Positions 7,670 through 58,864 of a stretch of DNA of 64,000 nucleotides are shown here, in pieces. The notes beneath the pieces are model-generated. The model was not told the DNA's origin. It saw nothing but the letters and a program-made list of their open reading frames with translations, and did not search any database. This DNA is from Nitrospirota bacterium (GTDB lineage: Bacteria > Nitrospirota > Thermodesulfovibrionia > Thermodesulfovibrionales > JdFR-86). Within the stretch, counting starts at the first letter, position 1. Every line of letters starts with the position of its first letter. The position numbers and the translations under genes were made by a program. Location of the stretch: positions 32,001 to 96,000 of the forward strand of contig CAVRJY010000001.1 in NCBI GenBank assembly GCA_963721805.1, read 5' to 3'.

Positions 7670-7696
7670 TCGTGCGAGCGGTCAACGGCATTGATT
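7670..7696 (-). repeat. R element 5'-end fragment (subtype B)
   Basis: Reverse complement is identical over 27 nt to 2395-2421 (AATCAATGCCGTTGACCGCTCGCACGA). Confidence 0.85.
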
Positions 7697-7768
7697 ATGT
7701 ATCGCGTTTTCGGGGGGTAACGTGGCCAAGCCGCTGCCTTGGCCTCTGTGAAATTGGAGTGGGAAAGA

Positions 7769-8215
7769 TCAGGCTTTATTCCCAGCGTCGGAAAAAAATT
7801 TATTAATTTTGCGAGTGAGTTGAACATTATCGATTAACTGACATTCCCATACTACCAATACTTGCCATCCAAGTTTTTTCAGTTGCTTAACGTTTATTCT
7901 GTCTCGGTCGATATTTCTTTGAATTTTGGGTATCCAATAATCAACATTCGACTTAGGTTTTCTTCTTCCTTCCTTGCAGCTATGTCCGTGCCAAAAGCAG
8001 CCATTGATAAAGATAGCCTTTTTCTTTTTGAGCCATGCTAAGTCTGGTTTCCCCGGTAAATCCGCCCTATATAGACGATATCCAGCATATCCGAGTCTCC
8101 ATACAATACGGCGGATTTGCAGCTCAGACATGGTGTTTTTTGCACGTATCTGGCGCATATTGTGTGATCGTCTTAGCGGGTCGATATTATCCATAACGCT
8201 TAGCCCTCTTGTCAT
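7769..8215 (-). CDS. vsr: Very short patch repair endonuclease
   Basis: RSHNMRQIRAKNT, LPGKPD, FINGCFWHGH, YWIPKIQRNIDRD, LGWQVLVVWEC. Confidence 0.93.
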   Translation of the reverse strand: MTRGLSVMDNIDPLRRSHNMRQIRAKNTMSELQIRRIVWRLGYAGYRLYRADLPGKPDLAWLKKKKAIFINGCFWHGHSCKEGRRKPKSNVDYWIPKIQRNIDRDRINVKQLKKLGWQVLVVWECQLIDNVQLTRKINKFFSDAGNKA

Positions 8216-8248
8216 TAATGCATGGCGTAATTGCTGGGCTAAATAGGG

Positions 8249-9109
8249 CTAAACTGCAAGGTCTAAAGGTAAATCAGAAATATCCTTTAGCCTCTTGCCT
8301 TCAACCATTATTTTTAAAAGCTCCATTGCTTCTTCATTTTGAAGAGTATTTACTCTTTCTTGGAGTTCATGTAAGGCAAAATGATATACACAATCAATTT
8401 CGCCAGTTCCTAACGCAATGGAAGATAACCGGCTGGGAAGAGGCTCTGCGGTAACAACAACAATATGCGGCAGATGCCCTTTTCGGTTCTTTATAAGATT
8501 GAGCGCTTCAGAGCGGCTATTCTGGCTTCTATCGGAGCGGATAGTCCATTTGGATGAGATGGAGGCATGCAAAAGTGGTTTGCCTCCGTTTGCCTTTCGC
8601 AGATCGGCTTTTCTTGCAACAGATTCATCAACCAATATATTAGTTTTATTGATTTCATCATCCTCAAGCAGATGGCGTATTATGATCACATCGGGTGTTA
8701 TAGTGTAATCGCTACCCAAAGAAGCGGCAAGCTCTGGATCATGTTTCGCCGCTTTGTCTAACGCTATGAGATGCTTATATTGCTCAAACTCAGCAATTGC
8801 AAGGCGGTTTCGATTTCCGATCCTTCGAATTTCCCATCTGCCGGGCCTAATATTGCCAAGAGCAAGAAAGGTTTCTTGAATATAATCTGCTGTGATTGCT
8901 TCAAACTCAGACCCGCTTGTTTGGCCCGCCAAGCGTTTACCGGTTTCACTTTGTAGTTTCTCTGCTATTCCAGAGGCGATACGTACTGAAAGCTTATTAT
9001 CCTTGTCAGCATTGCTGGGAATGCCATGGGCGTCAATTGTCAAAACGGACTCTAACAGCTTTGCATGGAATTTTTTGCGAGCCTTAGCGATAAAAGATTC
9101 TTTAGGCAT
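8249..9109 (-). CDS. Type II restriction endonuclease, NgoMIV family
   Basis: GQTSGSEFE, LGSDYTITPD, LHASISSKWTIRSDRSQNSRSEALNL motifs. ATG at 9109 overlaps the MTase TGA; 286 aa. Confidence 0.85.
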   Translation of the reverse strand: MPKESFIAKARKKFHAKLLESVLTIDAHGIPSNADKDNKLSVRIASGIAEKLQSETGKRLAGQTSGSEFEAITADYIQETFLALGNIRPGRWEIRRIGNRNRLAIAEFEQYKHLIALDKAAKHDPELAASLGSDYTITPDVIIIRHLLEDDEINKTNILVDESVARKADLRKANGGKPLLHASISSKWTIRSDRSQNSRSEALNLIKNRKGHLPHIVVVTAEPLPSRLSSIALGTGEIDCVYHFALHELQERVNTLQNEEAMELLKIMVEGKRLKDISDLPLDLAV

Positions 9110-10071
9110 CAGATCACCTTCTTCAATTTTCTTTTTGATGCTAACTCCATTGCGGACTTTATTTGATATCCTACAGCGCACGCTACCGGTGAAGGAAAAG
9201 CATTGCCTACCTGCCGGTATGCAGCTGTCTTCTTTCCGTGAAATTGCCATTCATCTGGAAAGCCTTGTATGCGGGCGGCCATCCGCACCGTTAAGCGTGG
9301 CATACCTATAAAATCACGATCAGGCGCAAGGTCAGCGATTCCGTGGCCATCAACGCCCAAACTGGCCCATGCACGTTTTGCACGCGTCGGGCCTAAATCT
9401 GGCCCTCCATGTTTCTTGCTGCCACCGACCAGCGTTGGGGCAATGTCACAGGCGCGTTCTCTCCAGGATTTAGCGCCTCTCCAGCCACGCTCTGCCATTA
9501 GGTCAAATAAAACTTTCCCAACAGAAGGCGGATTGAGCTTGTATGGTTCAGGCCAATTGAAGTGATCAGCCAGATCGCTTCGCAATGCAACAAAAACCAC
9601 GCGTGGGCGCAGCTGCGGAACCCCATAATCACAGGCATTCAAAAGACGCCACTCGGTTGAATAGCCAAGCTTGCGTAGTGCTTTCACGATGCCCGCCCGA
9701 TATTCGTCAAAGACAGTATCGAGCAAGCCTCGGACGTTTTCAAGCATAACGGCGCGTGGACGGCATTCGCTAATAAGCCGAATCGCTTCTGGAAACAAAT
9801 CCCGCTCATCTTCATCCCCGAGCTGCTTACCTGCTTTAGAAAATGGCGGACAAGGAACACCCCCGGCAATCAGATCAACTCCGGCATAGTGCTTCGCGTT
9901 GAAATCCTTAATATCACCTTCAAGCACCATCCATCCCGGACGGTTGAGCCTAAGTGTAGCGCAGGCAGATGGGTCAATCTCAACAAGACACGCGTGCTCA
10001 AACCCGGCCACCTCCAAGCCCAAAGCCTGGCCGCCAGCACCAGCACATATCTCAATCGACGTTAACGGCAT
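9109..10071 (-). CDS. DNA (cytosine-5)-methyltransferase, cognate to the NgoMIV-like REase
   Basis: EICAGAGG (motif I), GGVPCPPFS (IV), ENVRG (VI), QLRPR (VIII), YRQVGNA (X). Confidence 0.93.
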   Translation of the reverse strand: MPLTSIEICAGAGGQALGLEVAGFEHACLVEIDPSACATLRLNRPGWMVLEGDIKDFNAKHYAGVDLIAGGVPCPPFSKAGKQLGDEDERDLFPEAIRLISECRPRAVMLENVRGLLDTVFDEYRAGIVKALRKLGYSTEWRLLNACDYGVPQLRPRVVFVALRSDLADHFNWPEPYKLNPPSVGKVLFDLMAERGWRGAKSWRERACDIAPTLVGGSKKHGGPDLGPTRAKRAWASLGVDGHGIADLAPDRDFIGMPRLTVRMAARIQGFPDEWQFHGKKTAAYRQVGNAFPSPVACAVGYQIKSAMELASKRKLKKVI

Positions 10072-10213
10072 GTATTTCGAGCTATAATTATTATGCGGAA
10101 TCCCATGAGATATTCTAACAGACTACAATCGCATTGTGTCAAAAAATGAAGCACTCTGTGTTATAAACGTCGGCCCATTAGATGCCATATGCTTCCCCTT
10201 TCCACTAACCATA

Positions 10214-10813
10214 GTGAAGCTCCCCGTGGCAAGCCACGGGGCATCCGTGGCGCAGCTATAAGTCCAGCTGCGCAGGCAATTGCTTCTCTGCTCTGTGGCC
10301 GCGTATGTATTTGCGGATCATTTCCGAGGTCAAGCTGTCCCCGACTGTCCGCGCAAAGTACCCATCCTCCCACAGCTCACCCTTCCATAGTCTTTGCCTC
10401 AGCGATGGGTATTGCTTGAACAGCTCACGGGCGCTGATACTTTTCAGGGTTCTGACCACCACCCCTATCGAGTACCGTGGCGGGAACGATAGAAATATAT
10501 GCACATGGTCCTCCGCCACTTCCATCTCCACTATCTCATATTCATACTCTTCAGCTATCTCCCTGAAAAGTTCCGCGCACCGCTCGCGCATGTAACTTTG
10601 CGCGAACAGTCTCTTGCGATACTTAGGACACCATACCAGATGGTACCCGGTGTCATATACAGCGTGACTCGTCCTGCGTAACCCCATGCCTCATGATAGC
10701 CCGCAATTGCCTCGGCGGGAAAGGGGGACTTCCAGCCCCCCTTACATCCCCCCGGCAGGGATGCCATTCATCCCCGTGGCAAGCCACGGGGCATACTGGC
10801 ATGGTTTTCGTTA
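10214..10813 (-). mobile_element. IS200/IS605-family element, tnpA only (ends approximate)
   Basis: Identical 24-nt subterminal hairpins TCCCCGTGGCAAGCCACGGGGCAT at 10221-10244 and 10771-10794 bracket a Y1 transposase. The minus-strand right end reads GGGAGCTTCAC. Confidence 0.85.
10256..10687 (-). CDS. tnpA: IS200-family Y1 (HUH) transposase
   Basis: YHLVWCPKYRK, DHVH (HUH), LWEDGYFARTVG...IRKYI. Confidence 0.93.
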   Translation of the reverse strand: MGLRRTSHAVYDTGYHLVWCPKYRKRLFAQSYMRERCAELFREIAEEYEYEIVEMEVAEDHVHIFLSFPPRYSIGVVVRTLKSISARELFKQYPSLRQRLWKGELWEDGYFARTVGDSLTSEMIRKYIRGHRAEKQLPAQLDL

Positions 10814-10962
10814 ATCAAAAACGCACGTTTTCTAATTTTTCCTATTAGCTTCGGTTTATATATAAACCGTAGTTGGATCGACATTTTGTGCGGAGTGTGC
10901 TTCAATACGGAATGGGCCAGATAAGGTCATATTGGAGGGCGCGGAAAGCACTCGACGGCATC

Positions 10963-11178
10963 CGGAAAAATGCCTTTGAGTGCCCGGTTGGCGCATCCGA
11001 ACAAAACCCCGAAAAACCGGCTAAAACATCCGAACATCCGAACACCCTCAAAACAAGAAAATGTAGGCTTTTCGCATGGTTTCACACTATTTTACGCCCA
11101 ACATCCGAACAAAAACGGCAAAAACGCGCGCGCACGCGCGCGGAATGCATAACTATACCTATGACCGGCCCTCAAATC
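10963..11178 (+). repeat. Leader with four ATCCGAACA motifs, homologous to 48761-48956 (reverse strand)
   Basis: ATCCGAACA at 10995, 11028, 11036 and 11103. Shares GGAAAATGCxTTTGA and AAAACGCGCGCGC blocks with the second locus. Confidence 0.75.
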
Positions 11179-11352
11179 ATGCCGTTGACCTTGTGGGGTG
11201 CGGGGGGCTTCCGTCATCCTCTCCCCCCGAAAGCGCGCCCAAATCGACTTCAGACAAGGCAGGGCGAGAAGACCGCCCGATGGTGTACTTGGGCGTACAT
11301 AGAGGGCGAGTCTTCGATGCCCAACGCAGTATCAAGCGATTTGGCGCGCTTT
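11175..11352 (+). repeat. R element copy (subtype A)
   Basis: ATGCCGTTGACC...AAAGCGCGCCCAAATCG...CGATTTGGCGCGCTTT. Confidence 0.9.
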
Positions 11353-11380
11353 GAAAGACCGTGCATGAAGGAGGTAAGCG

Positions 11381-12357: not shown

Positions 12358-13047
12358 TTATTGCCTGCAGCCGCAGTTGCCGTGACGCGGTGCGTCACAG
12401 CCGCTCTCATAGCGCTGTCCGCAGTTGCCGCAGCCGCTATCATAGCGCTGGCCGCAGCCGTTGTCGCAGCCGCTATCGCAGGGCTGTCCGCAGTTGCCGC
12501 AGCCGCTGTCATAGCGCTGGCCGCTCATCCCGCAGCCATCATGGCGCTCATGCTGGGGGCAGCCGCTGGGGCCGCCCTGAGACATGCCATACGCGCCACC
12601 GAGCATCGCGGGGCCGCCGCCGGGGTGCTTGGGGCAGCTCTTGACGCCGCCCTGGCCCATCATCCTGTGGTGCATCGGGCCCATGCCCATGCCCACGGGG
12701 CTGTTGCCCATGCCCATGCCGGCCGGCATGCCGAGCTTGTCGGCGAGTTCGGCGCGGAGCTTCTGGAGCTCGGCGCTTATGGCCTCGGCCTGCTTCTGGT
12801 CGCCTTTTCTTACGGCCTCGCGGTAGTCGAACCACTTGTTGTGGATCTCACGGCGCAGGGGTGCGGTCGCATCGAGGGCCTTCTGGACATCCTCGGGGGC
12901 TTTTACGGAATCGTTTAGGGAGGGAACGCCGTCCCATCCCCATACCGGGCCGCCGCCCCACCACGCATATGCGGCACCGCTCATCGACAGCAGGCCGACG
13001 ATCAGCGCGGCAATCAGCATCCTTTTATTTCCGAAGTATCTGCTCAA
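12358..13047 (-). CDS. Periplasmic Spy/CpxP/ZraP-like protein with Cys/Gly-rich repeat tail
   Basis: Signal peptide (AAYA), helical LDATAPLRREI...ELQKLRAEL, Met/Gly-rich linker, and GQRYDSGCGNC-type repeats. Confidence 0.65.
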   Translation of the reverse strand: MSRYFGNKRMLIAALIVGLLSMSGAAYAWWGGGPVWGWDGVPSLNDSVKAPEDVQKALDATAPLRREIHNKWFDYREAVRKGDQKQAEAISAELQKLRAELADKLGMPAGMGMGNSPVGMGMGPMHHRMMGQGGVKSCPKHPGGGPAMLGGAYGMSQGGPSGCPQHERHDGCGMSGQRYDSGCGNCGQPCDSGCDNGCGQRYDSGCGNCGQRYESGCDAPRHGNCGCRQ

Positions 13048-46788: not shown

Positions 46789-46853
46789 AAAGCGCACCAA
46801 ATCGCTTGATACGTCGTTAGGCATCGAAGACTCGCCCTCTATGTACGCCCAAG
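46789..46853 (-). repeat. Half R element (3' arm only)
   Basis: Matches the R 3' arm and ends at the TTGGGC apical loop. Confidence 0.85.
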
Positions 46854-46870
46854 CATGATTAGAGTTATGC

Positions 46871-46966: not shown

Positions 46967-46972
46967 ACCCCC

Positions 46973-47001
46973 TTGACATGGGGGATTAGATAGGGTATCT
47001 T
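46973..47001 (+). promoter_or_regulatory. Putative sigma70 promoter of rho
   Basis: TTGACA-N17-TATCTT. Confidence 0.6.
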
Positions 47002-47202
47002 AAATATAGTTGTAGATGGCAGCCTTCAGTTTAATAGGGGAATCCCAGAGCCGATTGTAATCCCGAAAGCGCGCACCCTCAGCGGAAAATTTGATAGCCG
47101 CGCTGAGCGCGATATAAATAGGGATACGGCACAAACAAGCCAGCATTAAAACCCACACTCGTTGATAGCCGGGCGAAATGCACTAAAAGGAGCAGACCAC
47201 AA

Positions 47203-48471
47203 ATGGCCGTCGTAGCAAACATATCCATAGCAGACCTCATCAAGATGACGATCGCCGAACTCACGCAGCTCGCAACCGACCTCAACGTCGAGGGCGCCTC
47301 CGGCCTCCGCAAGCAGGACCTCATATTCGCGGTCATGCAGGCGCAGGTCGAAAAGAGCGGCAACGTGTTCGGGGCCGGGGTGCTCGAAATCCTCCCCGAC
47401 GGGTTCGGGTTCATGCGCTCGCCGGACTACAGCTACCTGCCCGGGCCGGACGACATCTACGTCTCGCCCTCGCAGATCAGGCGCTTCAGCCTCCGCACCG
47501 GGGACTTCGTGACCGGTCAGGTCAGGCCCCCGAAGGAGAACGAGCGGTACTTCGCGCTCCTCAAGGTCGAGTCGATCAACCACTCGTCGCCCGAGGAGGC
47601 CGTGGGCCGCGCGCTGTTTGATAACCTCACGCCTTATTACCCGACCGAGAAGTGGAACCTCGAAACCGAGGCGGACGAGTTCTCATGCCGCGTCATGGAG
47701 CTCATCACCCCCGTCGGCATGGGCCAGCGCGGCCTGATCGTCGCCGCACCGCGCACCGGCAAGACCGTGCTCCTGCAGTCCATCGCCAAGGCCATAAAGA
47801 AGAACCACGTCGACGCGCACCTGATCATACTCCTGATCGACGAGCGGCCCGAGGAGGTCACCGACTGGAAGCGCCAGGTGCCGGGGGCCGAGATCATCAG
47901 CTCGACGTTCGACGAGCCGCCACATCGCCACACGCAGGTCGCCGAGATTGTCATCGAGCGCGCCAAGCGCCTGACCGAGACCGGCCGCGACGTCTGCATC
48001 CTGCTTGACTCGATTACGCGCCTCGCCCGCGCATACAACGCCGTGATGCCCGCATCGGGCAAGATCCTCTCGGGCGGCCTCGATAGCAACGCCCTGCAGA
48101 GGCCCAAGCGCTTCTTCGGCACCGCGCGCAACATCGAGGGCGGCGGCAGCCTGACGATCCTCGCCACCGCGCTCGTCGATACCGGCTCGCGCATGGATGA
48201 CGTCATATTCGAGGAGTTCAAGGGCACCGGCAACATGGAGCTCCACCTCGACCGCAAGCTCATCGACAAGCGCATATTCCCGTCCATCGACATCAACGGC
48301 TCGGGCACGCGCAAGGAAGAGCTCCTCGTGGATAAGGACACGCTGAATAAGATGTGGATCCTGCGCAAGGTCCTCAACCCCCTGAGCACCGTCGAGAGCA
48401 TGGAGTTCCTGCTGGGCAAGCTCAAGAGCACCAAGACTAACAAAGAATTCATCGAGAAGATGAACAAGTAA
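47203..48471 (+). CDS. rho: Transcription termination factor Rho
   Basis: [41 protein letters not shown]. Confidence 0.97.
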
Positions 48472-48503
48472 CTAGCGCGATTTCGCTCGTATAACGAAAC
48501 CAC

Positions 48504-48532
48504 AGGGGGGCCGATAGGCCCCCCTTTCATTT
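48504..48532 (+). terminator. Putative terminator after rho
   Basis: AGGGGGGCC-GATA-GGCCCCCCT followed by TTCATTT. Confidence 0.7.
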
Positions 48533-48563
48533 GGTCACTCATCACCGCTCTCGCCCATTTTCC

Positions 48564-48762
48564 AAAGCGCTCCAAATCGCTTGATACTGCGTTGGGCATC
48601 GAAGACTCGCCCTCTATGTACGTCACAGTACACCATCGGGGTGCCACGGGCACCTCTCCTGAAGAAAGGGCCAGTCGGCCCCTTGTCTGAAGCCGATTTG
48701 GGCGCGCTTTCGGGGGGCACGGATGAAGGACGCCCCCCGCGCCCCACGTGGTCAAAAGCATG
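48564..48762 (-). repeat. R element copy with two S-type hairpins replacing part of one arm
   Basis: R consensus interrupted at 48638-48682 by GGGGTGCCACGGGCACCTCTC and GAAAGGGCCAGTCGGCCCC. Confidence 0.88.
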
Positions 48763-48956
48763 TTCTGATGTCCGCGCTTAGGCATACATACGCATACCGC
48801 GCGCGCGTTTTATTTTAGAGTGTTCGGATATTGGGGGCAAAAGCGAGCCTAATCCGGCGGATTTAAAGGGATTTATGCGATCTCCCGCGTTCGGATGTTC
48901 GGATGTTTTGGCCGAAAATCGGGCAATCATAAGCCGCTCAATCAAACGCATTTTCC
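48761..48956 (-). repeat. Leader homologous to 10963-11178
   Basis: TGTTCGGAT at 48821 and 48896; one-mismatch copies at 48761 and 48888. Confidence 0.75.
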
Positions 48957-49056
48957 CTACTGAGCGCCTAGCCCGCCCAACCACTCCCCTCGCTAATATG
49001 GCCTGTGTATATCCCATACGCGCGATGATAAACCAAGCGGTCGGAACTGCGCCATG

Positions 49057-49082
49057 GGAACTGGTTCCATGGAACCAGTTCC
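49057..49082. other. Perfect 26-bp palindrome
   Basis: GGAACTGGTTCCATGGAACCAGTTCC. Confidence 0.85.
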
Positions 49083-49100
49083 TAGGAGTTGGTTCCGGTG

Positions 49101-50300
49101 TGTAAAGGTTACGCTCTTACCGGACAGTATCAGGCTGGAAAAAGCAGGCGGCAGCCAGCCCTTCCATCGGTTAGAATGTTTCACCACAAAACACAGACCG
49201 AAGGAGGAAGGGCATGACTGCCAAAGAAAAGATATCACAAGGGAGGCTTTCAATGCTTCAGCTGGCCGAGAGGCTCAGGAACGTGTCGGAGGCCTGTCGC
49301 CGCCGGGGGGTGAGCCGCAGCCAGTTTTACGAGTACAAGCGGGCGTTTCAGGAGCAGGGGTTTGCGGGGCTCGCGGACCTTCCGCCGATAGCGCGTAGCT
49401 GTCCCCACAAGACGCCTGAGGAGGCCCGCAAGCGAGTGATCGAGATGAGCCTTGCTCACCCCCGGTGGGGGAAGCAGCGCATCTTCGAGCACCTGCTTCT
49501 GGAGGGCATATTGGTGCGTCCCTCAACTGTGTATCGCATCCAGGTTCGCGAGGGGCTGGAGTCGAAGGCCAAGCGCATCCTCCGGCTTGAGCAGGAGGCT
49601 AACGGCAAGGAGATCGAGCTAACGGAGGAGCAGGTCAAGCTCATCGAGCGGGCCAATCCGTGCTTCAGGGAAAGGCATGTGGAGAGCGCATATCCGGGCT
49701 ATCTGCTCAGCCAGGACACCTTCACGGTGGGCAAGCTCAAGGGCATCGGGACCGTGTATCTGCAGGCCGTGGTGGACACGTACGGCTCTTATGCCTTCGG
49801 CAAGCTGTACACGTCGAAGAGGCCCGAGACGGCGGCCGACGTGCTCTACGACCGCGTGCTGCCGTTTTACGAGGACCATGGCATCAGGGTCCAGCATGTC
49901 CTGACGGACAACGGCTCGGAGTACTGCGGCAAGCTGCTGCGGCATCCGTACGAGCTGTTTCTGGCGCTTCACGACATCGCGCATCGAAGGACGAAGGTGG
50001 CGACACCGAGGACAAACGGATTCGTGGAGCGGTTTAATCGCACCATCCTGGACGAGTTCTTCTCGGAGACGTTCAGGTACCGGTTCTACGCATCGCTCGA
50101 TGAGCTGCAGTATGACCTCGACCGGTGGCTGCACCACTACAACAACGAGCGCCCTCACAAGGGCTATCGCAACATGGGCAGACGGCCAATAGAAACTATC
50201 GAGCTGGGCAAAAAGCTAAGACAGAAAGCTGAGGAGGAGGCCGCCTGATCAGTGCGACCGATGAGATGGAAAACTGTCCGGAGAGCACTGGACTTTTACA
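49101..50300 (+). mobile_element. Complete IS481-family insertion sequence
   Basis: TGT...ACA ends; imperfect IRs (TGTAAAxGT...CCGGACAGT); 8-bp direct repeat TTCCGGTG at 49093-49100 and 50301-50308. Confidence 0.9.
49214..50248 (+). CDS. IS481-family DDE transposase
   Basis: HTH NVSEACRRRGVSRSQFY; SQDTF, TDNGSEY, TNGFVERFNRT, YNNERPH. Confidence 0.92.
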   Translation: MTAKEKISQGRLSMLQLAERLRNVSEACRRRGVSRSQFYEYKRAFQEQGFAGLADLPPIARSCPHKTPEEARKRVIEMSLAHPRWGKQRIFEHLLLEGILVRPSTVYRIQVREGLESKAKRILRLEQEANGKEIELTEEQVKLIERANPCFRERHVESAYPGYLLSQDTFTVGKLKGIGTVYLQAVVDTYGSYAFGKLYTSKRPETAADVLYDRVLPFYEDHGIRVQHVLTDNGSEYCGKLLRHPYELFLALHDIAHRRTKVATPRTNGFVERFNRTILDEFFSETFRYRFYASLDELQYDLDRWLHHYNNERPHKGYRNMGRRPIETIELGKKLRQKAEEEAA

Positions 50301-50350
50301 TTCCGGTGGAGTCTTTGACAAAAAATCTTTTAGTCTTTTCTGGCATTCAA

Positions 50351-51154
50351 TTATTTATCAAAAGGGCTATTGCGGTAATTCACAAGATCCTCGGCGGTCA
50401 TTTCCTTCGGTGGAACAAGACGATAATGTTTTTCAGTCGCTATGCCGATACCATTGCTGCCTTCCTCGAAAGCGAATAGTGCGATCAAGTTGTCCTCCAT
50501 GAATTGCGTCGCAATGGGTCGACATACAAGAGCGGGGAACTTCGCAGCACACATAGCGAAGTCCTGTTCTATCTGCACGATTCCTAGCTGATCCTTTCCA
50601 CCTTTGGCCTGCACAGGGAAGACATATTGAGCCCCGCGCCGATCAACTCCTATATAAAGTTCGTCGGTCTCAATCTGGCCCATTCCTGCAACAGTCGTTC
50701 TCAAATGGCTCTGCAAGGCGTAACAAGTTACGCCGGTAAAGATGTCTATGAGCCTGTTATAGCGCACCTTTGCAAGCAGAGCCTGCTCATCGCTCAAGGC
50801 ATACATCATGATGATTCCTGGAGTGGCGTCCGGTATTTTTGTCTCTGTCAACAATTCATTGGGGTTTATCCGTGGCAACGAGGTAAGCGAGAATTCATAA
50901 CGGGCGGTACCTACTGGCCGTATGACCCATTCCAAACCCTCCGGAGCAAGTTTACGGATGGAATCCGGCAGGGCCGCCCTGTACCGAAAAGTGTAAACAA
51001 TATCGCCAAGATTTTTCGGTAGAACGATACCCAGTTCCTGAGCGGTTCTTACGATCTCTTCTCTTTCGAAAGAGACTTCCGTGGCCATTGCGGTGTAGTG
51101 GCGTTCAAATATCTTTTCGATAAGCTGAGTGTATCTATTTTTACCCTTAGCCAT
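50351..51154 (-). CDS. Putative restriction endonuclease (PD-(D/E)xK-like)
   Basis: GQIETDELYIG...PVQAKGG motif; overlaps the MTase stop; AT-rich. Confidence 0.6.
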   Translation of the reverse strand: MAKGKNRYTQLIEKIFERHYTAMATEVSFEREEIVRTAQELGIVLPKNLGDIVYTFRYRAALPDSIRKLAPEGLEWVIRPVGTARYEFSLTSLPRINPNELLTETKIPDATPGIIMMYALSDEQALLAKVRYNRLIDIFTGVTCYALQSHLRTTVAGMGQIETDELYIGVDRRGAQYVFPVQAKGGKDQLGIVQIEQDFAMCAAKFPALVCRPIATQFMEDNLIALFAFEEGSNGIGIATEKHYRLVPPKEMTAEDLVNYRNSPFDK

Positions 51155-52493
51155 AGGTTCCTCCGGTTCGTTTTCCATTTCGTCGGCCAGTCAGCTTACT
51201 CGGTCCTGGCCATCTTAAAATAACGACTTCCTCGCGCATTTGCTTCTTTGTAGATGTGGCAATTCGTGTGCGAAACAAGTCGATACCGATAAGTTCATAA
51301 CCCTGAGAAACCGCTATGTCAGCCAATAACTGGCCCGTTCGTATCATCACCTGAAGATATGATGCCTGATCCCCTACGACATATCCGAGGTGTGCGCCGG
51401 GCTTCAAGAAAGGGCGGAGTTCGTCAAGGTGACGCGCCATGCCGCCGAAATACAGTTTTGTAACTTTTCCGTATAATTTTTCAAAGCCAGATGTTTTCCC
51501 AAGTTCGATTCTTTTATTTTCTATTTCTTTAGCGATAGCCTGTATATCCTTATTTTTTTCGACCCATTTATCATCATCGTCTCCTTTGTAAACATTCCGG
51601 GTATTGGAGCGGAGAAGTCCTTTTTTGAGTGCTTGAAGTTCAGCCTTGTTATTGATGAATCCAAGCAGAACGGATTCTAGTCTTGTGGTGCGAGTATAGT
51701 CTTTCTCGTTCGGATATGGTGGGGATGTGAAAACGGCATCGATGGAATTAGGTTGCAGTACCTCACCAAAGTGTCTGGAATCGGCATGGAAGACGGTTGC
51801 CGGAACCTGTGCCCTCTTCACAGAACGAAGGTCATCGGCCATGATCCGGACTTCATCAAGCCATGATTCTATAACAGGAGCGTCTAGTTTCTTCTTGGGA
51901 TGAACCCCGACTTCGGGACCGAAGTGAAGGTTGCTTATAGAGAAGACCAGTGCTTTTGCGAGAGCAAGGGACGCATGTCTGTTATATCTTTCGTCTTGGA
52001 GTTTGTGCATTTGCTCCAAAAGAATAATGGTCTTGTGCAGTGGGTGAGGACTGATGGAGTCCTTTAAAAGTAGCTTTATGGTCTCTTGAGATAGAGACCG
52101 CAATTTTCTTCTGCCCCAAGAAGCTATAAGCCTGTTGGCCTCTTCTGCTATCGTTTCCGCATATGCGATAAGATCATCAGGATTAATTCCCCAGTCCAGC
52201 TTAACACCACTAGCAAAGAAGGGCATATGATTGGCTTCGATGCCTATACTAGGTATTCCGTTCAACTTGGCTTCGATAATTGTTGTCCCTGTTCCACAGA
52301 AAGGATCAAGAATTGTGCTTTTATGATTGAGATTAAATTTATTTATGTATTCACGAACAAGATGGGGTGGAAAGGAAAGGACAAAGCGATACCAGTCATG
52401 AAATGCTCGGTCTGTCACTTGAAGTTTATTTGCAGTTCCGTTTGTTCTTTTCGGAGCGATTTCCGTTATTGTTGTAACTGGATTAGTTTGCAC
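51147..52493 (-). CDS. DNA amino-methyltransferase, probably N4-cytosine
   Basis: DPFCGTGTT (motif I) precedes TSPPY (motif IV). Confidence 0.85.
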   Translation of the reverse strand: MQTNPVTTITEIAPKRTNGTANKLQVTDRAFHDWYRFVLSFPPHLVREYINKFNLNHKSTILDPFCGTGTTIIEAKLNGIPSIGIEANHMPFFASGVKLDWGINPDDLIAYAETIAEEANRLIASWGRRKLRSLSQETIKLLLKDSISPHPLHKTIILLEQMHKLQDERYNRHASLALAKALVFSISNLHFGPEVGVHPKKKLDAPVIESWLDEVRIMADDLRSVKRAQVPATVFHADSRHFGEVLQPNSIDAVFTSPPYPNEKDYTRTTRLESVLLGFINNKAELQALKKGLLRSNTRNVYKGDDDDKWVEKNKDIQAIAKEIENKRIELGKTSGFEKLYGKVTKLYFGGMARHLDELRPFLKPGAHLGYVVGDQASYLQVMIRTGQLLADIAVSQGYELIGIDLFRTRIATSTKKQMREEVVILRWPGPSKLTGRRNGKRTGGTYG

Positions 52494-52585
52494 TTCACTA
52501 ATGCTATCAAATCGATGGTAGGTATTTCAATGATGAACGGCGCTTTGCTCATAGCGGATACAAATCTAATCAGCTCCATCCCACG

Positions 52586-52632
52586 AAAGCGCGCGAAATC
52601 GTATCAGACAAGGAAGGGGCCAGTCGGCCCCC
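52586..52632 (+). repeat. Partial R element (5' arm) ending in an S-type hairpin
   Basis: AAAGCGCGCGAAATCGTATCAGACAAGG followed by AAGGGGCCAGTCGGCCCC. Confidence 0.7.
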
Positions 52633-52661
52633 TATGGTATATTAAGTATTGGTGTAAAAGG

Positions 52662-53240
52662 ATGCGAAACCTTGCTTATAAGCTGGCGGCGATCTGCGCG
52701 TTTTTGAGCGTATTGCTGTTTTGCGCGTCGTTTGCGTATGCCGCCAATATTACAGGCCCCGAGGTGCGACTCGACCAGCAGGGCATATACGTCGCGGCCG
52801 GCGTGAGGCTCGAGCCCCAGGAGCAGCAGGACATCCGCGAGGGCATCCAGAAGGACATCGACATATTCATCGACCTCTTCCGCGTCTGGCGCTTCTGGCC
52901 GGACGAGTTCGTGCTCGGCACGAAGTATACCCAGACGCTGCGCTGCGACCCTGTGAAGAAAGAATATGTCGCGACCTCCCTTACCGGCACGCGCGAGCGC
53001 GTGCACCGCTTCGAGGACTGCGACGCCCTGATGAACTGGGCCCTGAACATCCCGGAGATCATGCTCACGCACGTGGGCGAGCTCGAGCCGGGGGAGTATT
53101 TCGTCAAGGTCACGGCCGAGTCGCGCCTGCGGCGCCTGCCTCCGTTTATAGACCAGCTGTTTTTCTTCGTCCCGCAGAAGGAATACCACATAGAGGGCCG
53201 CTCGCAACCGTTCCCGATAGGCGGGGGTGCCGCGAAATGA
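52662..53240 (+). CDS. DUF4390-like exported protein
   Basis: Signal peptide; position directly upstream of ntrY-ntrX. Confidence 0.65.
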   Translation: MRNLAYKLAAICAFLSVLLFCASFAYAANITGPEVRLDQQGIYVAAGVRLEPQEQQDIREGIQKDIDIFIDLFRVWRFWPDEFVLGTKYTQTLRCDPVKKEYVATSLTGTRERVHRFEDCDALMNWALNIPEIMLTHVGELEPGEYFVKVTAESRLRRLPPFIDQLFFFVPQKEYHIEGRSQPFPIGGGAAK

Positions 53241-55270
53241 GGCTGAACGCCAAAAAGAGCGCGCTCCTGGCTGTCTGCGTCCTCGGCTTGTTCGCAATCG
53301 CGCTCGGGCTGGAGGTCGCCTTCGTGCACACTGCCGTGGAAACGCTTGCCGGCCGCGCGGTGTTTTTCTTCACGCTGGACCTGATGGTGCTGGTACTGGT
53401 CGCGATCCTGATCGCGGTCGTCAAGCCGTTTATCGCCCTGCTGCGCGAGCGGCGCGAGCGCGTGCTCGGCTACAAGTTCAAGACGAAGATGACGGTCTTC
53501 TTCGTCGTGACCGCCGCGATCCCGGCCGCGCTGCTTTTCCTGATATCGACCCAGCTCGGGACGCGCTACATAGAGCGCATCTATACGCCGCAAGTCCGGC
53601 AGTCCTTCGCCGGATCCATAGAGCTTGCGAAGCACTACTACGCCGAGGAGCGCAGGCTGGCGCGGTATTTCGCCTCCGTAGCGCTCAAGGGCGAGCCGGT
53701 GCCCGGAGAGTACGCCATAGAGCGGCTCGTCCGGCCCCCCGATGACGCATCCGGCGTGATCGCCGCCGCGTTCGAGCGCCGCGAGCAGGGGGCCGAGATA
53801 GTCTCCTCCCCGGACGGCGACATGGTGATCGGGGCCGCCCCGGACCCGGCCGGCGGCGTGGTCTTCGTGGTCAGGAAGCTCATCCCCAGGGCCGCGAGCG
53901 AGTACGTCCGCATGATCATGGACGCGCACGAGGACTACACGAAGACCGACGCCTGGAAATCTCAGGTGAAGCTCAACTACCTGCTCCTGATGGGGTTCTT
54001 CGCGCTCACGATCATCTTCATGTCGCTGTGGCTCTCGCTTAAGATCTCGGGCTGGATAGCCGAGCCGGTGCGCGACCTCGCCTCGGCCACGAACGAGGTA
54101 GCCTCCGGTAACCTCTCGGTCTCCGTGACCTCGCGCCGCAATGACGAGATGGGCCAGCTCACCGAGTCGTTCAACCGCATGGTGCGCCAGATGCGGCAGG
54201 ACAAGGAATCCCTCAACAGCGCGTACACGCGCCTGAGCACCGCATTTTTAAACCTCGAAAGCATAGTCACTAATATCCACAGCGGCGTCATCTCGCTTGA
54301 CGAGGCCGGAAACGTCGTTGCGATCAACGCGGCCGCATGCCGCATATTCGGCATCCCGGAGGCCGGGGACGTGATGGGCAAGTTCTACCCAGCGTTTCTG
54401 GCCAACGTCCGCTCGGAAGAGCTCCAGGAGATGATAAAATCCATAAATATCAAGACGTTACAATCAATCGAGAAAGAGGTCAACGCCGACATCTCAGGCC
54501 GTCAGGCCCTGCTGCGGGTTTCGGTTACCGGGCTTAAAAACGTCGGCGCCGAGCACCTCGGCATCCTCGTCGTCATCGACGACATCACGGACGTAGTCCG
54601 CGCCCAGCGCGCCCTGATGTGGCAGGAGGTCGCGCAGGTTATGGCCCACGAGATCAAAAACCCGCTGACCCCGATCCTGCTCTCGACCGAGCGCATGCTC
54701 AAGAAGTGGGAGAGGAAGGACGAAGACTTCCCGGTCGCGTTCGAGCGGGCCACCAGGGCGATCATCAAGGAGGTCCATTCCCTAAAGAGGCTGGTCGACC
54801 AGTTCTCTAAGTTCGGTAAACTGCCGGAAATAAAGAAGATTTTAACTAGCCTGCGCCCTATCGTCGATGAGGTGCGCTCGCTGTATCAAGACACGGACGG
54901 CCTCGTGCTGAGCGTCGAACTCCCGGACGATATGCCGGACGTCGCGCTCGACCCCGAGCAGTTCAAGCGCGTCTTGATCAACCTTATAGAGAACGCCGCG
55001 CAGGCGATGAAGGGGCGGGGCTCGGTCGTGCTCCGCTTCAGGACCGACGCCGAGCGCAGCACCATGATAACCGAGGTCGCGGATACCGGCCCGGGCATCC
55101 GGGATGAGGACAAGGAGCGGGTGTTTCAGCCCTATAAGTCCGGCAAGAAGGAAGGCACCGGGCTTGGGCTTGCGATCTCGCACCGCATCATCGAGGAGCA
55201 CGGGGGCCGCATCTGGGTGCACGACAACCAGCCGAAAGGCTGCGTATTTACAATAGAATTACCGATCTAA
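53237..55270 (+). CDS. ntrY: NtrY-like HAMP/PAS sensor kinase
   Basis: HAMP (DEMGQLTESFNRM), WQEVAQVMAHEIKNPLTPI, GTGLGL. Confidence 0.85.
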   Translation: MRLNAKKSALLAVCVLGLFAIALGLEVAFVHTAVETLAGRAVFFFTLDLMVLVLVAILIAVVKPFIALLRERRERVLGYKFKTKMTVFFVVTAAIPAALLFLISTQLGTRYIERIYTPQVRQSFAGSIELAKHYYAEERRLARYFASVALKGEPVPGEYAIERLVRPPDDASGVIAAAFERREQGAEIVSSPDGDMVIGAAPDPAGGVVFVVRKLIPRAASEYVRMIMDAHEDYTKTDAWKSQVKLNYLLLMGFFALTIIFMSLWLSLKISGWIAEPVRDLASATNEVASGNLSVSVTSRRNDEMGQLTESFNRMVRQMRQDKESLNSAYTRLSTAFLNLESIVTNIHSGVISLDEAGNVVAINAAACRIFGIPEAGDVMGKFYPAFLANVRSEELQEMIKSINIKTLQSIEKEVNADISGRQALLRVSVTGLKNVGAEHLGILVVIDDITDVVRAQRALMWQEVAQVMAHEIKNPLTPILLSTERMLKKWERKDEDFPVAFERATRAIIKEVHSLKRLVDQFSKFGKLPEIKKILTSLRPIVDEVRSLYQDTDGLVLSVELPDDMPDVALDPEQFKRVLINLIENAAQAMKGRGSVVLRFRTDAERSTMITEVADTGPGIRDEDKERVFQPYKSGKKEGTGLGLAISHRIIEEHGGRIWVHDNQPKGCVFTIELPI

Positions 55271-55296
55271 GCCATGCAAGAAGGGGGCTCATAGCG

Positions 55297-56658
55297 ATGT
55301 CGACGGTGCTCATAATTGACGACGAAGAGGGCATAAGGGAGAGTCTCTCTGACATCCTCTCGGACGAGGGCTTCCGCACCGTGCTCGCCGGGAGCGCCGA
55401 GGAGGGCCTGAAGCTGATCGAGGATGAGCAGCCCGACCTCGTATTCCTCGACGTCTGGCTCCCCGGGATGGACGGCATCGAGGCCTTAGGCAGGATCAAG
55501 GAGATAAAACCCGACCTCCCGGTCATACTGATCTCCGGCCACGGGAATATAGAGATAGCCGTGAAGGCCACGAAGATCGGTGCGCATGACTTCATAGAAA
55601 AGCCGCTTTCGCTGGAGCGCGTCGTGCTTGCGGCCAAGCACGCGCTCGCGCTTCAGAGCCTCGCGCGCGAGAACCTCACGCTTCGTGCGACAATCTCCCG
55701 CGGGATGAAGCTCGTTGGGACCTCGGCCCCCATCCGCTCGATCCGGCAGCAGATCGAGATGGCCGCCAGAAGCTCCGCGCGCGTGCTCATAACGGGCGAG
55801 AGCGGCACCGGCAAGGAGATCGTGGCCCGGATGCTCCATGACATGAGCGCCAGGGCCTCCGGCCCATATATCGAGGTAAACTGCGCCGCGATACCCGAGG
55901 AGCTGATCGAGAGCGAGCTGTTCGGCCATGAGAAGGGCTCTTTTACCGGCGCGTTCGAGACGAAGAAGGGCAAGTTCGAGCTTGCTGACGGCGGGACGCT
56001 CTTTCTGGACGAGATCGGCGACATGTCAATGCAGACCCAGGCCAAGCTCCTGCGCGTGCTCGAGACCCAGGAGTTCCAGCGCGTCGGCGGATCGAAGAAC
56101 ATCAAGGTCGACGTCCGCGTCCTTTCGGCCACGAATAAGGACCTCGTCGAGCTTATCCGCAAGGGCAGGTTCAGGGAGGACCTCTACTACAGGATCAACG
56201 TGATCCCCATACACCTGCCCCCGCTGCGCGAGCGCAAGGAGGACATCCCGGAGCTGGTCGAGCACTTCCTCGATCTGACCGCAGCGGAATGCGGCCAGGC
56301 CCGGAAGAAGGTCGGGGAGGGGCTGCTCAAGGCGCTCGAAACCCAGGACTGGCCTGGCAATATCCGGGAGCTCAAGAACGCTATCGAGCGGCTCGCGATC
56401 ATGACCCGCACCGAACGGCTCGGCCCGGAGGGGCTCAGGCCCGGTGGGCCTGTCATATCTGCCGAGGAGCCGGGATTTTTCAGCATACGCACGCTCAAGG
56501 ACGCGCGCGACGCCTTCGAGCGCGAGTTCATCGGGCGGAAGCTCGCGGAGAACGGCTGGAACGTTACCAAGACCGCCGAGGCGCTCGATATCGAGCGCAG
56601 CAACCTCCACCGCAAGATCAAGGGCTACGAGATCAAGCTCCCCGGCGGACAGGGCTAG
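55297..56658 (+). CDS. ntrX: NtrX-like sigma54-interacting response regulator
   Basis: REC (FLDVWLPG), GESGTGKE, GSFTGA, HTH ERSNLHRKI. Confidence 0.88.
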   Translation: MSTVLIIDDEEGIRESLSDILSDEGFRTVLAGSAEEGLKLIEDEQPDLVFLDVWLPGMDGIEALGRIKEIKPDLPVILISGHGNIEIAVKATKIGAHDFIEKPLSLERVVLAAKHALALQSLARENLTLRATISRGMKLVGTSAPIRSIRQQIEMAARSSARVLITGESGTGKEIVARMLHDMSARASGPYIEVNCAAIPEELIESELFGHEKGSFTGAFETKKGKFELADGGTLFLDEIGDMSMQTQAKLLRVLETQEFQRVGGSKNIKVDVRVLSATNKDLVELIRKGRFREDLYYRINVIPIHLPPLRERKEDIPELVEHFLDLTAAECGQARKKVGEGLLKALETQDWPGNIRELKNAIERLAIMTRTERLGPEGLRPGGPVISAEEPGFFSIRTLKDARDAFEREFIGRKLAENGWNVTKTAEALDIERSNLHRKIKGYEIKLPGGQG

Positions 56659-56720
56659 ACATAGGGGGCGACCGCCCCTTTGCTCAGATCGCGCACCTTC
56701 AACAAGTCGTTCGTCTGGAT

Positions 56721-56736
56721 TGTTCCACGTGGAACA
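56721..56736. other. parS: parS centromere-like site
   Basis: TGTTCCACGTGGAACA; palindrome extends 56717-56740. Confidence 0.88.
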
Positions 56737-56782
56737 ATCCGTCCTCTCTCGCCAGCCTTTAGCCTGTCTGTTGTGTCCTCAT

Positions 56783-56798
56783 TGTTCCACGTGGAACA
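56783..56798. other. parS: parS centromere-like site
   Basis: Second identical TGTTCCACGTGGAACA. Confidence 0.88.
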
Positions 56799-56967
56799 TC
56801 GCGCGGTCTATTAACTATAGTTACTGACAAGCATCCGGCTAATAGGCGTAACATATTGAAATATATAGTTATTTAGCCCGTCTCTCTGTCGGCTATATGT
56901 TGGGTTTTGTTGCCCGCGCATGTCAGAATCGTGTTGGTGGATGAGCGGATAAGCTGTTGAGGGAGGG

Positions 56968-58635
56968 TCAGTAATCGAGTTTCAGGTTGCGGGTGGTGTC
57001 GGCCGCCTCGGCGCGCTTGAAGGCCGCCACGCGGTATGGCAGGTTCGGGCGGTCTCCGGCGAGGAGCTTCTCTATCGTGAGTATCTGGAGGCGCGGGAAG
57101 TCCCAGTTGAGTATGTCCGAGTGATAGAAGCCCTTTGTCGCGGCCTCGGTGGTCATATCGCGCGTCGGGGGCTCCAAGGTGATGAGGATGCCGAACTCGG
57201 CCTTCTCGCGGTCGGCCACATGGCCCAAATCGCGCATGTCCTTTACCGAGACCTTGCCGCTTTTGACCGAGACTATGCCGCGCGATATCTGGTCCTTGGC
57301 CTCATGGAAGTAGACATAGCCGTCGATCCCGGTGTCCGAGCCCTTCTTCCTGTCCCCGTAGGGCCGCGCGTCTATCAGCGAGAGCGCCCACCACTGGAAC
57401 TGGTAGCGGTCCTGAAGCGCAAGCTCCCGCGCGCCCGTAAGGTCCTCCGGCTCGCCTATGACCTTATAGTCCTTGCCCGGCTCTATCGAGAACATGTGCT
57501 TTAGCCGCCACTTGATGAGGTTCACCGAGAGGTGCGTGACGTCTATCCCTATCCAGCGGCGGTTTAGCCGTTGCGCGGCGGTGATAGTGGTGCCGCAGCC
57601 GCAGAACGGGTCGAGCACCACATCGCCCTCATTCGATGAGGCCTTAATGATGCGCTCCAGAAGCGCCTCCGGCTTCTGCGTCGGATAGCCGAGGCGTTCC
57701 TGTGCATGTGCGGATATTGGATTGATGTCATTTATGACATCTCTAATCGGTACGCCTGCATCTTCATTTATATATCTTTTCAATCCGGGTATTCCGCCGT
57801 CTTTTGCTGGCCAGTAGACCAAACCTTTTTTATCCAGAAGATCTAACTTTTCTTGTGTTGACATTTTATCTAAATCAATTTTCCCCTTTACTTCATTAAG
57901 GATTTTCATGGGGACTGCCCAGTGGCGTCCTTTGGATGTCGGGTCTATATCCCTCCAAGGCTTTCCTGAGTCACCTGTCCTCGTTCCCGCACCAGTTAAA
58001 TCGCCAACACGATAAACTCCGCCTTTGTCTTTATATCTGTAAAAATTCTCAATGTATGTTTCGTCATACTGTTCAAATACAGGATTCCAGACAGGCTCTC
58101 TGTCCTTGCCGTAGAAAAGTATTACATCATGGACTGGCCCCCATCTCTTTGATCCACTATGGCTGCTTGTCCTTTTCCACACTATCTCATTCCTGAAATT
58201 CTTCTTCCCGAATATCGTATCCATTACAACCTTTAGATAGTGTGACGCGGTGGGGTCACAATGCAGATAGATGCTCCCTGTGTCCTTGAGCACGCGCCTG
58301 AGTTCCAAAAGCCGCACGCACATCATCGTGAGATATGCCATCATGTCGTTTACCCCGATGAACGATCTAAACGCGCGCATCATCTCTACCACGTTGGCGG
58401 GCGCGGCCTCGACTATCGCCTGAAACGTCCGCTCCGCGTCCTCGTTCCAGTGCCAGGTGTCCTCAAACGCGGTGATCTGCGCGTCCGAGGACTTGCCGGT
58501 CGGTTCCTTGAAGAGTATGTTGTAGTCGGCCTTTGAGTTAAACGGCGGGTCGAGGTATATCAGGTCTGCCGATGCGTCCGGGACGTAGCGCCTCAGGATG
58601 TCGAGGTTGTCGCCGAAGTAGAGGGTGTTGTCCAT
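56968..58635 (-). CDS. DNA adenine methyltransferase (beta order) with C-terminal nuclease-like domain
   Basis: [28 protein letters not shown]-terminal DTGIDG...VSVKSG. Confidence 0.88.
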
Positions 58636-58680
58636 CGCATCCGATTATAACAAAAGCGCAAAACTCTCACAAAGAAATTT

Positions 58681-58864
58681 AATCAATGCCGTTGACCGCT
58701 CGCGCTTGACCCACGGGCATAACCAAAGCGCGATAAATCGGGGGCGGCTGCCCCTTTACTTCAGACAAGGAACCGGACGAAAAATAACCGGAGGCGTATA
58801 TGGACATACGTCGAGGATTATTTTTCGGGCGGTGACACAGTATGAAGCGATTTAGCGCGGCTTT
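58681..58864 (+). repeat. R element copy (subtype B) with inserted S-type hairpin
   Basis: Homologous to 2395-2573; contains GGGGCGGCTGCCCC at 58741-58754. Confidence 0.85.

Follow-up and report, generated by a model that had tools for sequence, protein, structure and literature searches.

A polar structured repeat at the borders of accessory islets throughout the genome of a Nitrospirota bacterium

Small islets of defence and toxin-antitoxin genes in bacterial chromosomes are usually ascribed to integrases, to transposons or to homologous exchange via the flanking core genes. The attC sites are structured imperfect hairpins of about 60–140 nt, conserved by fold, beside small and often promoterless accessory genes, and the dif sites of Acinetobacter plasmids alternate in orientation along the replicon. 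In this study, a stretch of 64,000 nucleotides of a Nitrospirota bacterium (assembly GCA_963721805.1, contig CAVRJY010000001.1, positions 32,001 to 96,000 of the forward strand; hereafter, the window) was analysed together with the remaining genome for a repeat of about 185 nt, named R, which is found at the edges of accessory islets. A large share of the accessory DNA of this genome lies between copies of this single polar structured repeat, with no enzyme in sight.

Several described repeat families resemble R. Repetitive extragenic palindromic (REP) sequences, including bacterial interspersed mosaic elements (BIME) and the REPIN-RAYT system, are reported as hundreds of extragenic hairpin-forming copies at gene ends, in mosaic combinations with other short motifs and in alternating orientation (PMC2817692, PMC3116915), and REPs are reported to serve as targets of insertion sequence (IS) elements (PMC1525189). 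Copy number and intergenic position are features that R shares with bacterial MITEs (miniature inverted-repeat transposable elements) of the Correia/NEMIS type, and passenger genes enclosed by paired small repeats have been described in mosaic transposons bracketed by MITEs or by Tn3-derived inverted-repeat miniature elements (TIMEs) (PMC4133298, PMC10969869, PMC2229807). In the dif modules of Acinetobacter plasmids, accessory modules including toxin-antitoxin genes are located between pairs of recombination sites, and IS elements insert beside these sites (PMC9455709), features comparable to those of the R islets.

A profile built from six window copies of R gave 225 matches at E up to 1e-3 (105 on the plus and 120 on the minus strand, 11 of them in the window) in the genome (G000; 2.78 Mb, 9 contigs, 94% complete), and at least 160 model positions were covered by 167 of these matches. 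The window is one sample of a genome-wide family. The two ends of R, a 5′ head and a 3′ tail, differ markedly in their surroundings. Among 160 full copies, the guanine-plus-cytosine (GC) content of the 1-kb flank was 0.511 on the head side and 0.616 on the tail side, the head flank being the lower one in 144 copies (Wilcoxon p 4e-25); genes of typical codon usage, as called by a crude caller, covered 0.39 of the head side and 0.90 of the tail side. The polar repeat noticed in the window by the initial annotation is real and genome-wide, and its orientation relative to accessory DNA, on which that annotation had staked its proposal beforehand, is not random (144/160).

Neighbouring copies (219 pairs) were arranged head-to-head in 69 cases, with a median gap of 1600 bp and a mean GC content of 0.485, and tail-to-tail in 67 cases, with a median gap of 9135 bp, a mean GC content of 0.623 and long core DNA between them; the remaining 83 pairs had the same orientation. 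Gaps of just 3–55 bp were found in seven of the 69 head-to-head pairs. An inverted partner within 10 kb was missing for 58 of the 160 full copies, in which the asymmetry was weaker but present. Of 170 low-GC segments of at least 500 bp, 31 had heads at both ends and 46 at one end. Of 216 tails, 138 faced a converging gene at its 3′ end, with a median distance of 6 bp to the stop codon, and the other 78 faced a gene at its 5′ end, at a median of 42 bp before the start codon; the gene calls underlying these flank statistics come from our own crude codon-usage script. Partial copies retained the tail 49 times and the head seven times, an imbalance that deletions unable to cross into core genes would also yield. 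Density along the genome was very uneven: contig C5 (97 kb) carries 26 copies, one per 3.7 kb, and the first 770 kb of contig C1, around dnaN, hold 99 of the 130 copies of that contig.

The polarity depends on the head. Lower-GC head flanks were observed in 104 of 111 copies with type-G heads and in 32 of 39 with type-A heads, which are polar yet have no GC hairpin. By comparison, copies in this genome reduced to the core, with no head motif within 130 nt, had the lower GC content on the head side in 8 of 17 cases (p 0.49), and the headless copies of related genomes had no polarity either: the lower-GC flank was on the head-equivalent side at 13 of 25 loci in genomes G002, G003 and G006 (0.603 vs 0.602) and at 16 of 28 in genome G067 (0.561 vs 0.566). 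Because headless copies, here and in relatives, are non-polar and both head types are polar, polarity towards foreign DNA is tied to the head module; the comparison comprises one headed lineage against four headless genomes, together with the contrast within the genome.

An alignment of 86 full copies with their flanks defined R as a discrete element some 185 nt in length. Read 5′ to 3′, a weakly conserved A/T-rich lead-in comes first, followed by the head motif AATGCCGTTGACC, then a variable GC hairpin or, in the second head type, a GCTCGCACGATTA... stretch, and then the core, a long covarying hairpin of 120–130 nt that starts with AAAGCGCG...AAATCG and closes with CGATTT...GCGCTTT; the 3′ end after this hairpin is loosely A-rich. 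The head, about 60 nt long, comprises the invariant GCCGTTGACC and the variable hairpin. This 10-mer was identical throughout 48 diverse copies, whereas the stems covary, and it is rare outside R (169 genome matches). The first seven bases of the head motif appear to resemble the Neisseria uptake signal. The 12-mer ATGCCGTTGACC, with up to one mismatch, occurs eight times in the window against 0.24 expected, a number reached in none of 100 shuffles, and inverted and direct repeats of 130–140 nt, 94–98% alike, connect the named places of the window. The hairpin of the head exists as a few discrete variants common to several loci; a guide-like variable loop was considered and rejected, since the variants are not site-specific. 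Similarity between copies stops abruptly at the tail (-7 to +3 nt) and continues past the head into differing modules. The end sequences, AATGCCGTTGACC... and ...GCGCTTTGAAAA, do not form inverted repeats.

The fold of R is one rod-like hairpin of 120–130 nt with conserved internal loops, with no short GC-rich REP palindrome or inverted doublet. The folding energy of a single copy was -95.6 kcal/mol (z -4.3). When the 43-pair structure of one copy was counted on 48 copies spanning 28 sequence clusters, pairing was found in 82.6% of the cells, against 24–49% with the partner columns slid; changes on both sides were present at 22 of the 43 stem pairs, and the covariation score was 0.198 against 0.104 for shuffled data (0/500 shuffles as high). 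Entire helices have been swapped for other complementary sequences, with the internal loops CAGACAAGG, GAGG and GTATCA kept. The fold is under selection. Its strand preference is a weak lean to the head-to-tail strand, on which 90 G-T and 49 A-C cells were counted, mostly from three positions. No Rfam covariance model matched the 64-kb window at gathering score, and seven R copies gave one chance-level match only (E 0.65). No intrinsic terminator was called on R in either direction, with only three T after the long hairpin, and no promoter signal was seen beyond consensus noise.

The core (model positions 61–180) was searched for in relatives with a covariance model of R. It was detected, the present genome included, in 4 of 11 genomes of the family, 12 of 151 of the order and 20 of 151 of the phylum, each core-bearing relative having several to dozens of copies, all of them without the GCCGTTGACC head. 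In G067 and G002 the core is a plain foldback MITE ended by TAGAACCTATCTCAAAAT and its inverse; G067 has 44 core matches and 136 MITE ends, for the most part spaced at about 177 nt, and 16 of its 25 complete copies are flanked by TA on both sides. Two complete copies of this terminal-inverted-repeat form are retained in G000. The hairpin core descends from a MITE of the usual kind with terminal inverted repeats, which occurs across the phylum. R itself is derived from this old foldback MITE and is lineage-specific and strongly amplified; the core was kept, the terminal inverted repeats were lost and a head was gained. As to a parent transposase, DDE_3, the one family searched, was absent from G000, G002, G003 and G067. 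In G067, a 1.7-kb element lies between MITE terminal inverted repeats (locus L197, C17:17780–19660) and encodes a 332-aa open reading frame (ORF) with no transposase domain; to judge from its sequence, it looks like a passenger-carrying cassette.

R as a whole was not recovered by blastn from any of 30 relatives (0/30), nor was it matched in plasmid and phage collections. Relatives of the family lack R by sequence and lack synteny at the R sites: their gltA orthologues are 56–58% identical, and dnaN, the TPR gene and pyk are not beside them. Over positions 39001–59000 of the window, one DNA run (0.08 of the sampled words) gave short low-depth contigs with no informative joint across an islet.

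The cargo was surveyed in 49 head-to-head islets of 0.3–10 kb, in which 54 of 145 ORFs had Pfam matches at E up to 1e-5. Restriction-modification genes were represented by MmeI and two N6_N4 methylases, one of them fused to an Mrr domain, and toxin-antitoxin genes by three HepT with two MNT partners, ParE/Phd, PemK, MazE, HicA, Gp49 with HTH, and DUF4160/DUF2442. Other defence-type families were Abi_C, KAP, HEPN, PLD, HNH, SRAP, a Ser/Thr kinase and an HD-CE/TPR giant. The proposal of the initial annotation that divergent R pairs bracket accessory and defence cargo holds well beyond the window, the surveyed head-to-head islets having cargo rich in defence and toxin-antitoxin genes. Cargo genes beside heads pointed towards R and away from it in 45 and 47 cases, with no fixed orientation. 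An ORF family of 160 aa beside some heads was set aside, as it looks non-protein-like.

Short modules adjoin the heads. The main one, module X, is a repeat-studded, AT-rich and non-coding sequence of about 380 nt with 53 matches, of which 34 are near full length and almost all are 0–45 nt from a head on the same strand; it occurs on at most one arm per pair (on one arm in 18 of 39 pairs, on two in none). A second module type consists of tandem GC hairpin and CTCACTATTCG-like units, in R orientation, directly outside some heads (window 20976–21060 and 46889–46964); by eye it accompanies about one fifth of the aligned copies, and a strict search for the CTCACTATTCG unit gave 7 sites only. The islets contain five IS481-type and four IS200 transposases. 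Six IS200 copies with equal scores, each between hairpins CCCCGTGGCAAGCCACGGGG, are present in G000, at window 10200–10800 and at C1:366622, C1:1252034, C1:1452182, C4:138543 and C4:146508, and two of them cut module X at model position 47. The PF01797 (Y1) genes of G000 are these six identical copies only, with no RAYT; their end hairpins (window 10222–10241 and 10773–10792) are unrelated to R, and no Y1 gene was found in the core-carrying draft relatives G002, G003 and G006 (92–99% complete). The IS481-type element has five near-identical copies in the genome, and for four of these a truncated module X beside a head is about 180 nt away; in the window (49040–50300), its left end follows the perfect palindrome GGAACTGGTTCC ATGG AACCAGTTCC and CTAG. 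Given these repeated IS481 and IS200 positions beside heads, the head-side modules are recurrent IS targets, as REPs are.

The copies of R also exchange sequence. All four allele combinations were present at 82% of the pairs of sites up to 10 nt apart and at 98% of those more than 60 nt apart, and r2 between sites dropped from 0.24 to 0.09 with distance; the copies are therefore mosaics that recombine with one another.

We tentatively favour the explanation that the R head is a joint for the insertion or exchange of foreign DNA and IS elements, the tail serving as an anchor at core genes. The tail would hold R tightly against the stop codon or promoter of a core gene and the head would be the active joint, so that two inward-facing heads would mark a slot for accessory cargo. 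Exchange might proceed by recombination at the conserved head motif, carried out by a DNA-binding or recombination protein, or by homologous exchange across the arms as portable homology. The integration or recombination hot spot suggested initially is favoured indirectly, by the tie between polarity and head, by the IS positions beside heads and by recombination between copies; we infer from these both the entry or swapping of cargo at the head and the enzyme that would perform it. A wider version of this explanation, possible but more doubtful, is that the R arms serve as docking borders in a system of cassette exchange on the chromosome, with some 70 or more two-head slots for small defence and toxin-antitoxin cassettes, served by a head-specific activity of undescribed kind or by transformation-coupled homologous exchange, in which the hairpin core would be a domesticated MITE acting as a neutral buffer to the core gene.

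Several observations weigh against the head as an insertion joint. No recombinase, transposase or reverse transcriptase was tied to R: RVT_1, IS110, TnpB and DDE_3 were not found in the 94% complete genome, its seven PF00589 tyrosine recombinase genes are 3.2–81 kb from the nearest R with none within 3 kb, and no islet ORF (0/145) matched integrase or resolvase families. The cargo common to several islets is limited to IS elements and head-side modules, and two MTase-Mrr genes from separate R-bounded islets are merely 50% identical. Heads face core DNA in 16 of the 160 copies, for example in the window copy at 43335–43521, and heads are missing from both ends of 93 of the 170 low-GC segments. 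Exact-pattern scans outside this genome returned two genome stretches, four metagenome stretches and no viral contigs, which are chance matches, as profile matches covered the pattern itself only. The polarity counts are not independent, since two arms share an islet, and so overstate the number of independent events; the polarity is far beyond chance despite this.

Alternatively, R might be selected at islet borders as a polar barrier or insulator that stops whatever comes from the cargo side, be it read-through transcription, a nuclease (RecBCD, for instance) or a process of replication or silencing. The geometry fits, as the inward symmetry of the arms suits a block to anything starting inside the islet; R is in terminator or upstream-insulator position (138 of 216 tails at stops, 78 before starts), its fold is stable and covarying, and the G-T excess (90 vs 49) is on the strand carried by a transcript leaving the cargo. 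We nevertheless regard this as unlikely: no intrinsic terminator was called, cargo genes point either way in equal measure (45 towards R, 47 away from it), type-A heads are polar without the GC hairpin, headless cores with the same long hairpin are non-polar, and the arrival of about 200 copies at borders would be left unexplained. It is rather improbable that R is the fixed end of a mobile unit with variable adjacent DNA, as in rolling-circle or one-ended transposition, the islet being built from either side. The sharp tail and mosaic head side, the unrelated arms of pairs, the absence of target duplications, the 58 full copies without an inverted partner that keep a weaker asymmetry, and module X, which is never on both arms, would suit such a unit; it would need every unit to land tail-first against a gene end, and no HUH or other transposase accompanies R, the IS200 Y1 hairpins being different and Y1 genes lacking in three core-carrying relatives, nor is any R-adjacent cargo common to two islets beyond modules X and Z and IS elements. 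A passive by-product is improbable as well, namely a MITE-like repeat that accrues at tolerated edges of foreign AT-rich DNA, with selection and one-sided deletion shaping the pattern and no function. The core is indeed an ordinary terminal-inverted-repeat MITE in relatives (G067, 44 matches, TA on both sides of 16/25), two complete copies of that type remain in this genome, no enzyme was found, and the tail/head imbalance of partial copies (49 vs 7) is what deletions barred from core genes predict. However, symmetric insertion cannot yield 144 of 160 copies facing the same way, a few bases at most separate the tail from gene ends and no AT-rich DNA remains on that side, polarity is missing exactly where the head is missing, and the head 10-mer is invariant amid variation elsewhere.

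Two further explanations were largely removed by the data. A composite transposon or mobile insertion cassette, in which two inverted R copies would be the terminal repeats of a unit moving with its cargo, corresponds to the paired ends of composite units proposed in the initial annotation. The 69 inverted head-to-head pairs, seven of which have gaps of 3–55 bp and look like miniature forms, and the 1.7-kb element within MITE terminal repeats in G067, with its 332-aa ORF and no transposase domain, would agree with it. Nevertheless, no direct repeat of at least 9 nt was found around 59 pairs beyond shuffled controls and no duplication of 2–5 nt at any fixed offset in 52 pairs. Paired arms did not exceed random copies in similarity (0.292 vs 0.285, p 0.65; same cluster in 7 of 39 vs 17% expected), head types assorted randomly (AG 20, GG 14 and AA 4 vs 17.7, 15.2 and 5.2 expected), and no left/right arm asymmetry was detected within pairs. 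An identical unit at two sites was not found. Since the arms are unmatched, a composite transposon with matched ends is ruled out, and the explanation, largely refuted, is very improbable. For single copies, the longest word shared by the two flanks was at the shuffled level (160 copies), with 10–16 nt in four copies, and neither TA nor any other dinucleotide was enriched at a fixed offset from R, the tail included. The copies at C5:73521 and C1:655746, whose head and tail flanks share words of 16 nt and 11 nt, are exceptions. Integron-like cassettes, with R as an attC-like structured site for an integron integrase, are hardly credible and largely excluded. R is an imperfect hairpin of 120–130 nt conserved by structure and not by sequence, the cargo is small and rich in toxin-antitoxin genes and unknown ORFs, and some short same-orientation runs of R exist; against this, R is dispersed over the chromosome, mostly in inverted pairs and not in one array, the cargo genes have no fixed orientation, and there is no integrase gene near any copy (nearest PF00589 gene at least 3.2 kb away, with IntI not typed separately).

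If docking at the head is true, it would be a compact new way to organise chromosomal gene flux, an example of a MITE taken over for a docking role and a place to look for a new activity in DNA recognition or recombination; if the polar barrier is true, R would represent a novel type of insulator separating native from foreign genes. Under either of the two, the question can be tested by comparing headed with headless copies.

In the window, four spans next to R have a GC content below that of the window as a whole (0.598): 7700–11173 (0.482), 20981–24640 (0.525), 40598–41679 (0.402) and 48765–52571 (0.505). The core gene names dnaN, gltA, rho, mscL and mrcA given initially were upheld by Pfam, as were Vsr, NgoMIV, the 5mC methyltransferase, IS200 TnpA, the IS481-type rve and two N6_N4 methyltransferases among the accessory genes; the ORF called an endonuclease (50351–51178) had no Pfam match. 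As had been remarked, all three methyltransferase loci of the window adjoin an R copy, which is a consequence of the genome-wide rule. The original list of copies was incomplete, a cargo-less head-to-head dimer at 2163–2576 having been left out. Its left arm is a full R on the minus strand (2163–2340; nhmmer 194.5 bits, model 3–188), the tail of which is 25 nt past the cheW terminator region, and its right arm, after a 55-nt gap, is a diverged R with a type-A head on the plus strand (2396–2576; 34.5 bits, model 4–185), the tail lying just upstream of the purH promoter-like TGGTATCAT.

The copy reported at 7670 is a head-only remnant (7670–7700, minus strand); the exact motif is present at 7680–7691, but there is no full copy, and the profile missed it. 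It forms the left border of the Vsr/NgoMIV/5mC-methyltransferase/IS200 islet, the cargo of which (7769–10687, minus strand) comprises, by Pfam, Vsr (7769–8215), a NgoMIV-type endonuclease (8249–9250), a C-5 methylase (9109–10071) and IS200 TnpA (10256–10687). AT-rich, non-coding module X follows on the plus strand at 10810–11173, with ATCCGAACA repeats (nhmmer X profile 283 bits, model 47–376); it is cut by IS200 at model position 47 and is 1 nt from the head of a full R (11174–11358, plus; 213 bits), whose tail is 22 nt before the mscL start codon (11381). Farther on, the minus-strand ORF 12358–13047 holds four copies of a 33/36-nt tandem repeat (12394–12557), a repetitive coding stretch.

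The next islet is bordered by a full R on the minus strand (20784–20980; 208.8 bits), the tail of which is about 20 nt past the stop of an OmpA/MotB-like gene (19747–20763) and the head of which adjoins the tandem units at 20976–21060, and by the copy described as degenerate at 24667. A remnant is indeed present there (24640–24725, plus), although it is the 3′ half only; it was seen by alignment, is below the profile threshold and abuts the mrcA stop codon (24726). Between dnaN and gltA, a full R on the minus strand (40406–40597; 193.6 bits) has its tail directly after the T-run of the dnaN terminator (40382–40401), and the islet (40598–41679, GC 0.402) has an AT-rich ORF (40668–41426) without Pfam match. 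At about 41500–41640, between this ORF and the right arm, three hairpin units, each of about 33 nt and AATCTTACAT...ATGTAAGATT-like, were observed in tandem. The right arm is a full R (41680–41865, plus; 204.1 bits) with its tail 2–7 nt from the gltA stop codon (41868–41870). The full R at 43335–43521 (plus; 208.6 bits) is an exception to the rule, its head being directed towards the gltA upstream region and its tail overlapping the stop of the TPR gene (43518). A 3′ fragment of R (46785–46854, minus; 68.7 bits, model 116–185) lies just upstream of pyk, and a pyk promoter-like site at 46763–46790 (TTAACA, 16 nt, TG-TATACT) has its first hexamer within this tail fragment.

A full R with an internal insert (48557–48764, minus; 157 bits), whose tail is 25 nt past the rho terminator (48504–48525), borders the islet 48765–52571 (GC 0.505), with a partial module X (48764–48911), the IS481-type transposase (49214–50248), an ORF without Pfam match (50351–51178) and an N6_N4 methylase (51147–52493). 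On the other side is a degenerate R (52572–52662, plus; 22.8 bits, E 7.3e-5, model 45–132), which retains the 5′ half of its core but no longer the head motif, before a histidine kinase gene (52721). Finally, an N6_N4 methylase fused to an Mrr-type nuclease domain by Pfam (56968–58635, minus) faces the head of a diverged R with a type-A head (58680–58865, plus; 34.1 bits, model 2–183), the tail of which is 12 nt from the stop of an FtsX-like permease gene (58877). No partner arm was found for this copy, in agreement with the initial statement that the 6mA methyltransferase has R on one side only.

The closest parallels of R are REP/BIME, MITEs and MITE-bracketed units, dif modules and attC, and R lacks a defining feature of each of those that were testable. 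Literature searches yielded no account of a structured, polar repeat that borders accessory islets across a genome. With more than 100 extragenic copies near gene ends (225 matches), R has a feature of membership in the REPs, but a REP is a palindrome of 20–40 nt, against the hairpin of 120–130 nt in R, and the REPIN-RAYT system has a gene for RAYT, a Y1 HUH transposase, normally in one copy with the repeats on its flanks, of which the present genome is devoid. To our knowledge, a consistent polarity towards foreign DNA has not been reported for REPs. In relatives, the R core takes the form of a classic MITE, about 177 nt long, that has terminal inverted repeats and is flanked by TA; R itself, unlike a MITE, has no terminal inverted repeats, no target duplication and a new asymmetric head, and no parent transposase of the DDE_3 family was found, and unlike in MITE-bracketed units, the two arms of a pair are unrelated. 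From elements derived from IS200/IS605 and associated with palindromes, the subterminal hairpins of the resident IS would be expected, and R matches no IS200 end hairpin. The pdif sites are short Xer sites on plasmids, used by the enzymes XerC/XerD, in contrast to R, a structured chromosomal repeat of 185 nt with no enzyme assigned, in which no Xer-like 28-bp site was seen by eye (no site model was run). Like attC, R is an imperfect hairpin conserved by fold beside small accessory genes such as toxin-antitoxin pairs; attC sites, however, are in one array, in the same orientation and beside intI/attI, whereas R is dispersed, mostly inverted and with no integrase nearby.

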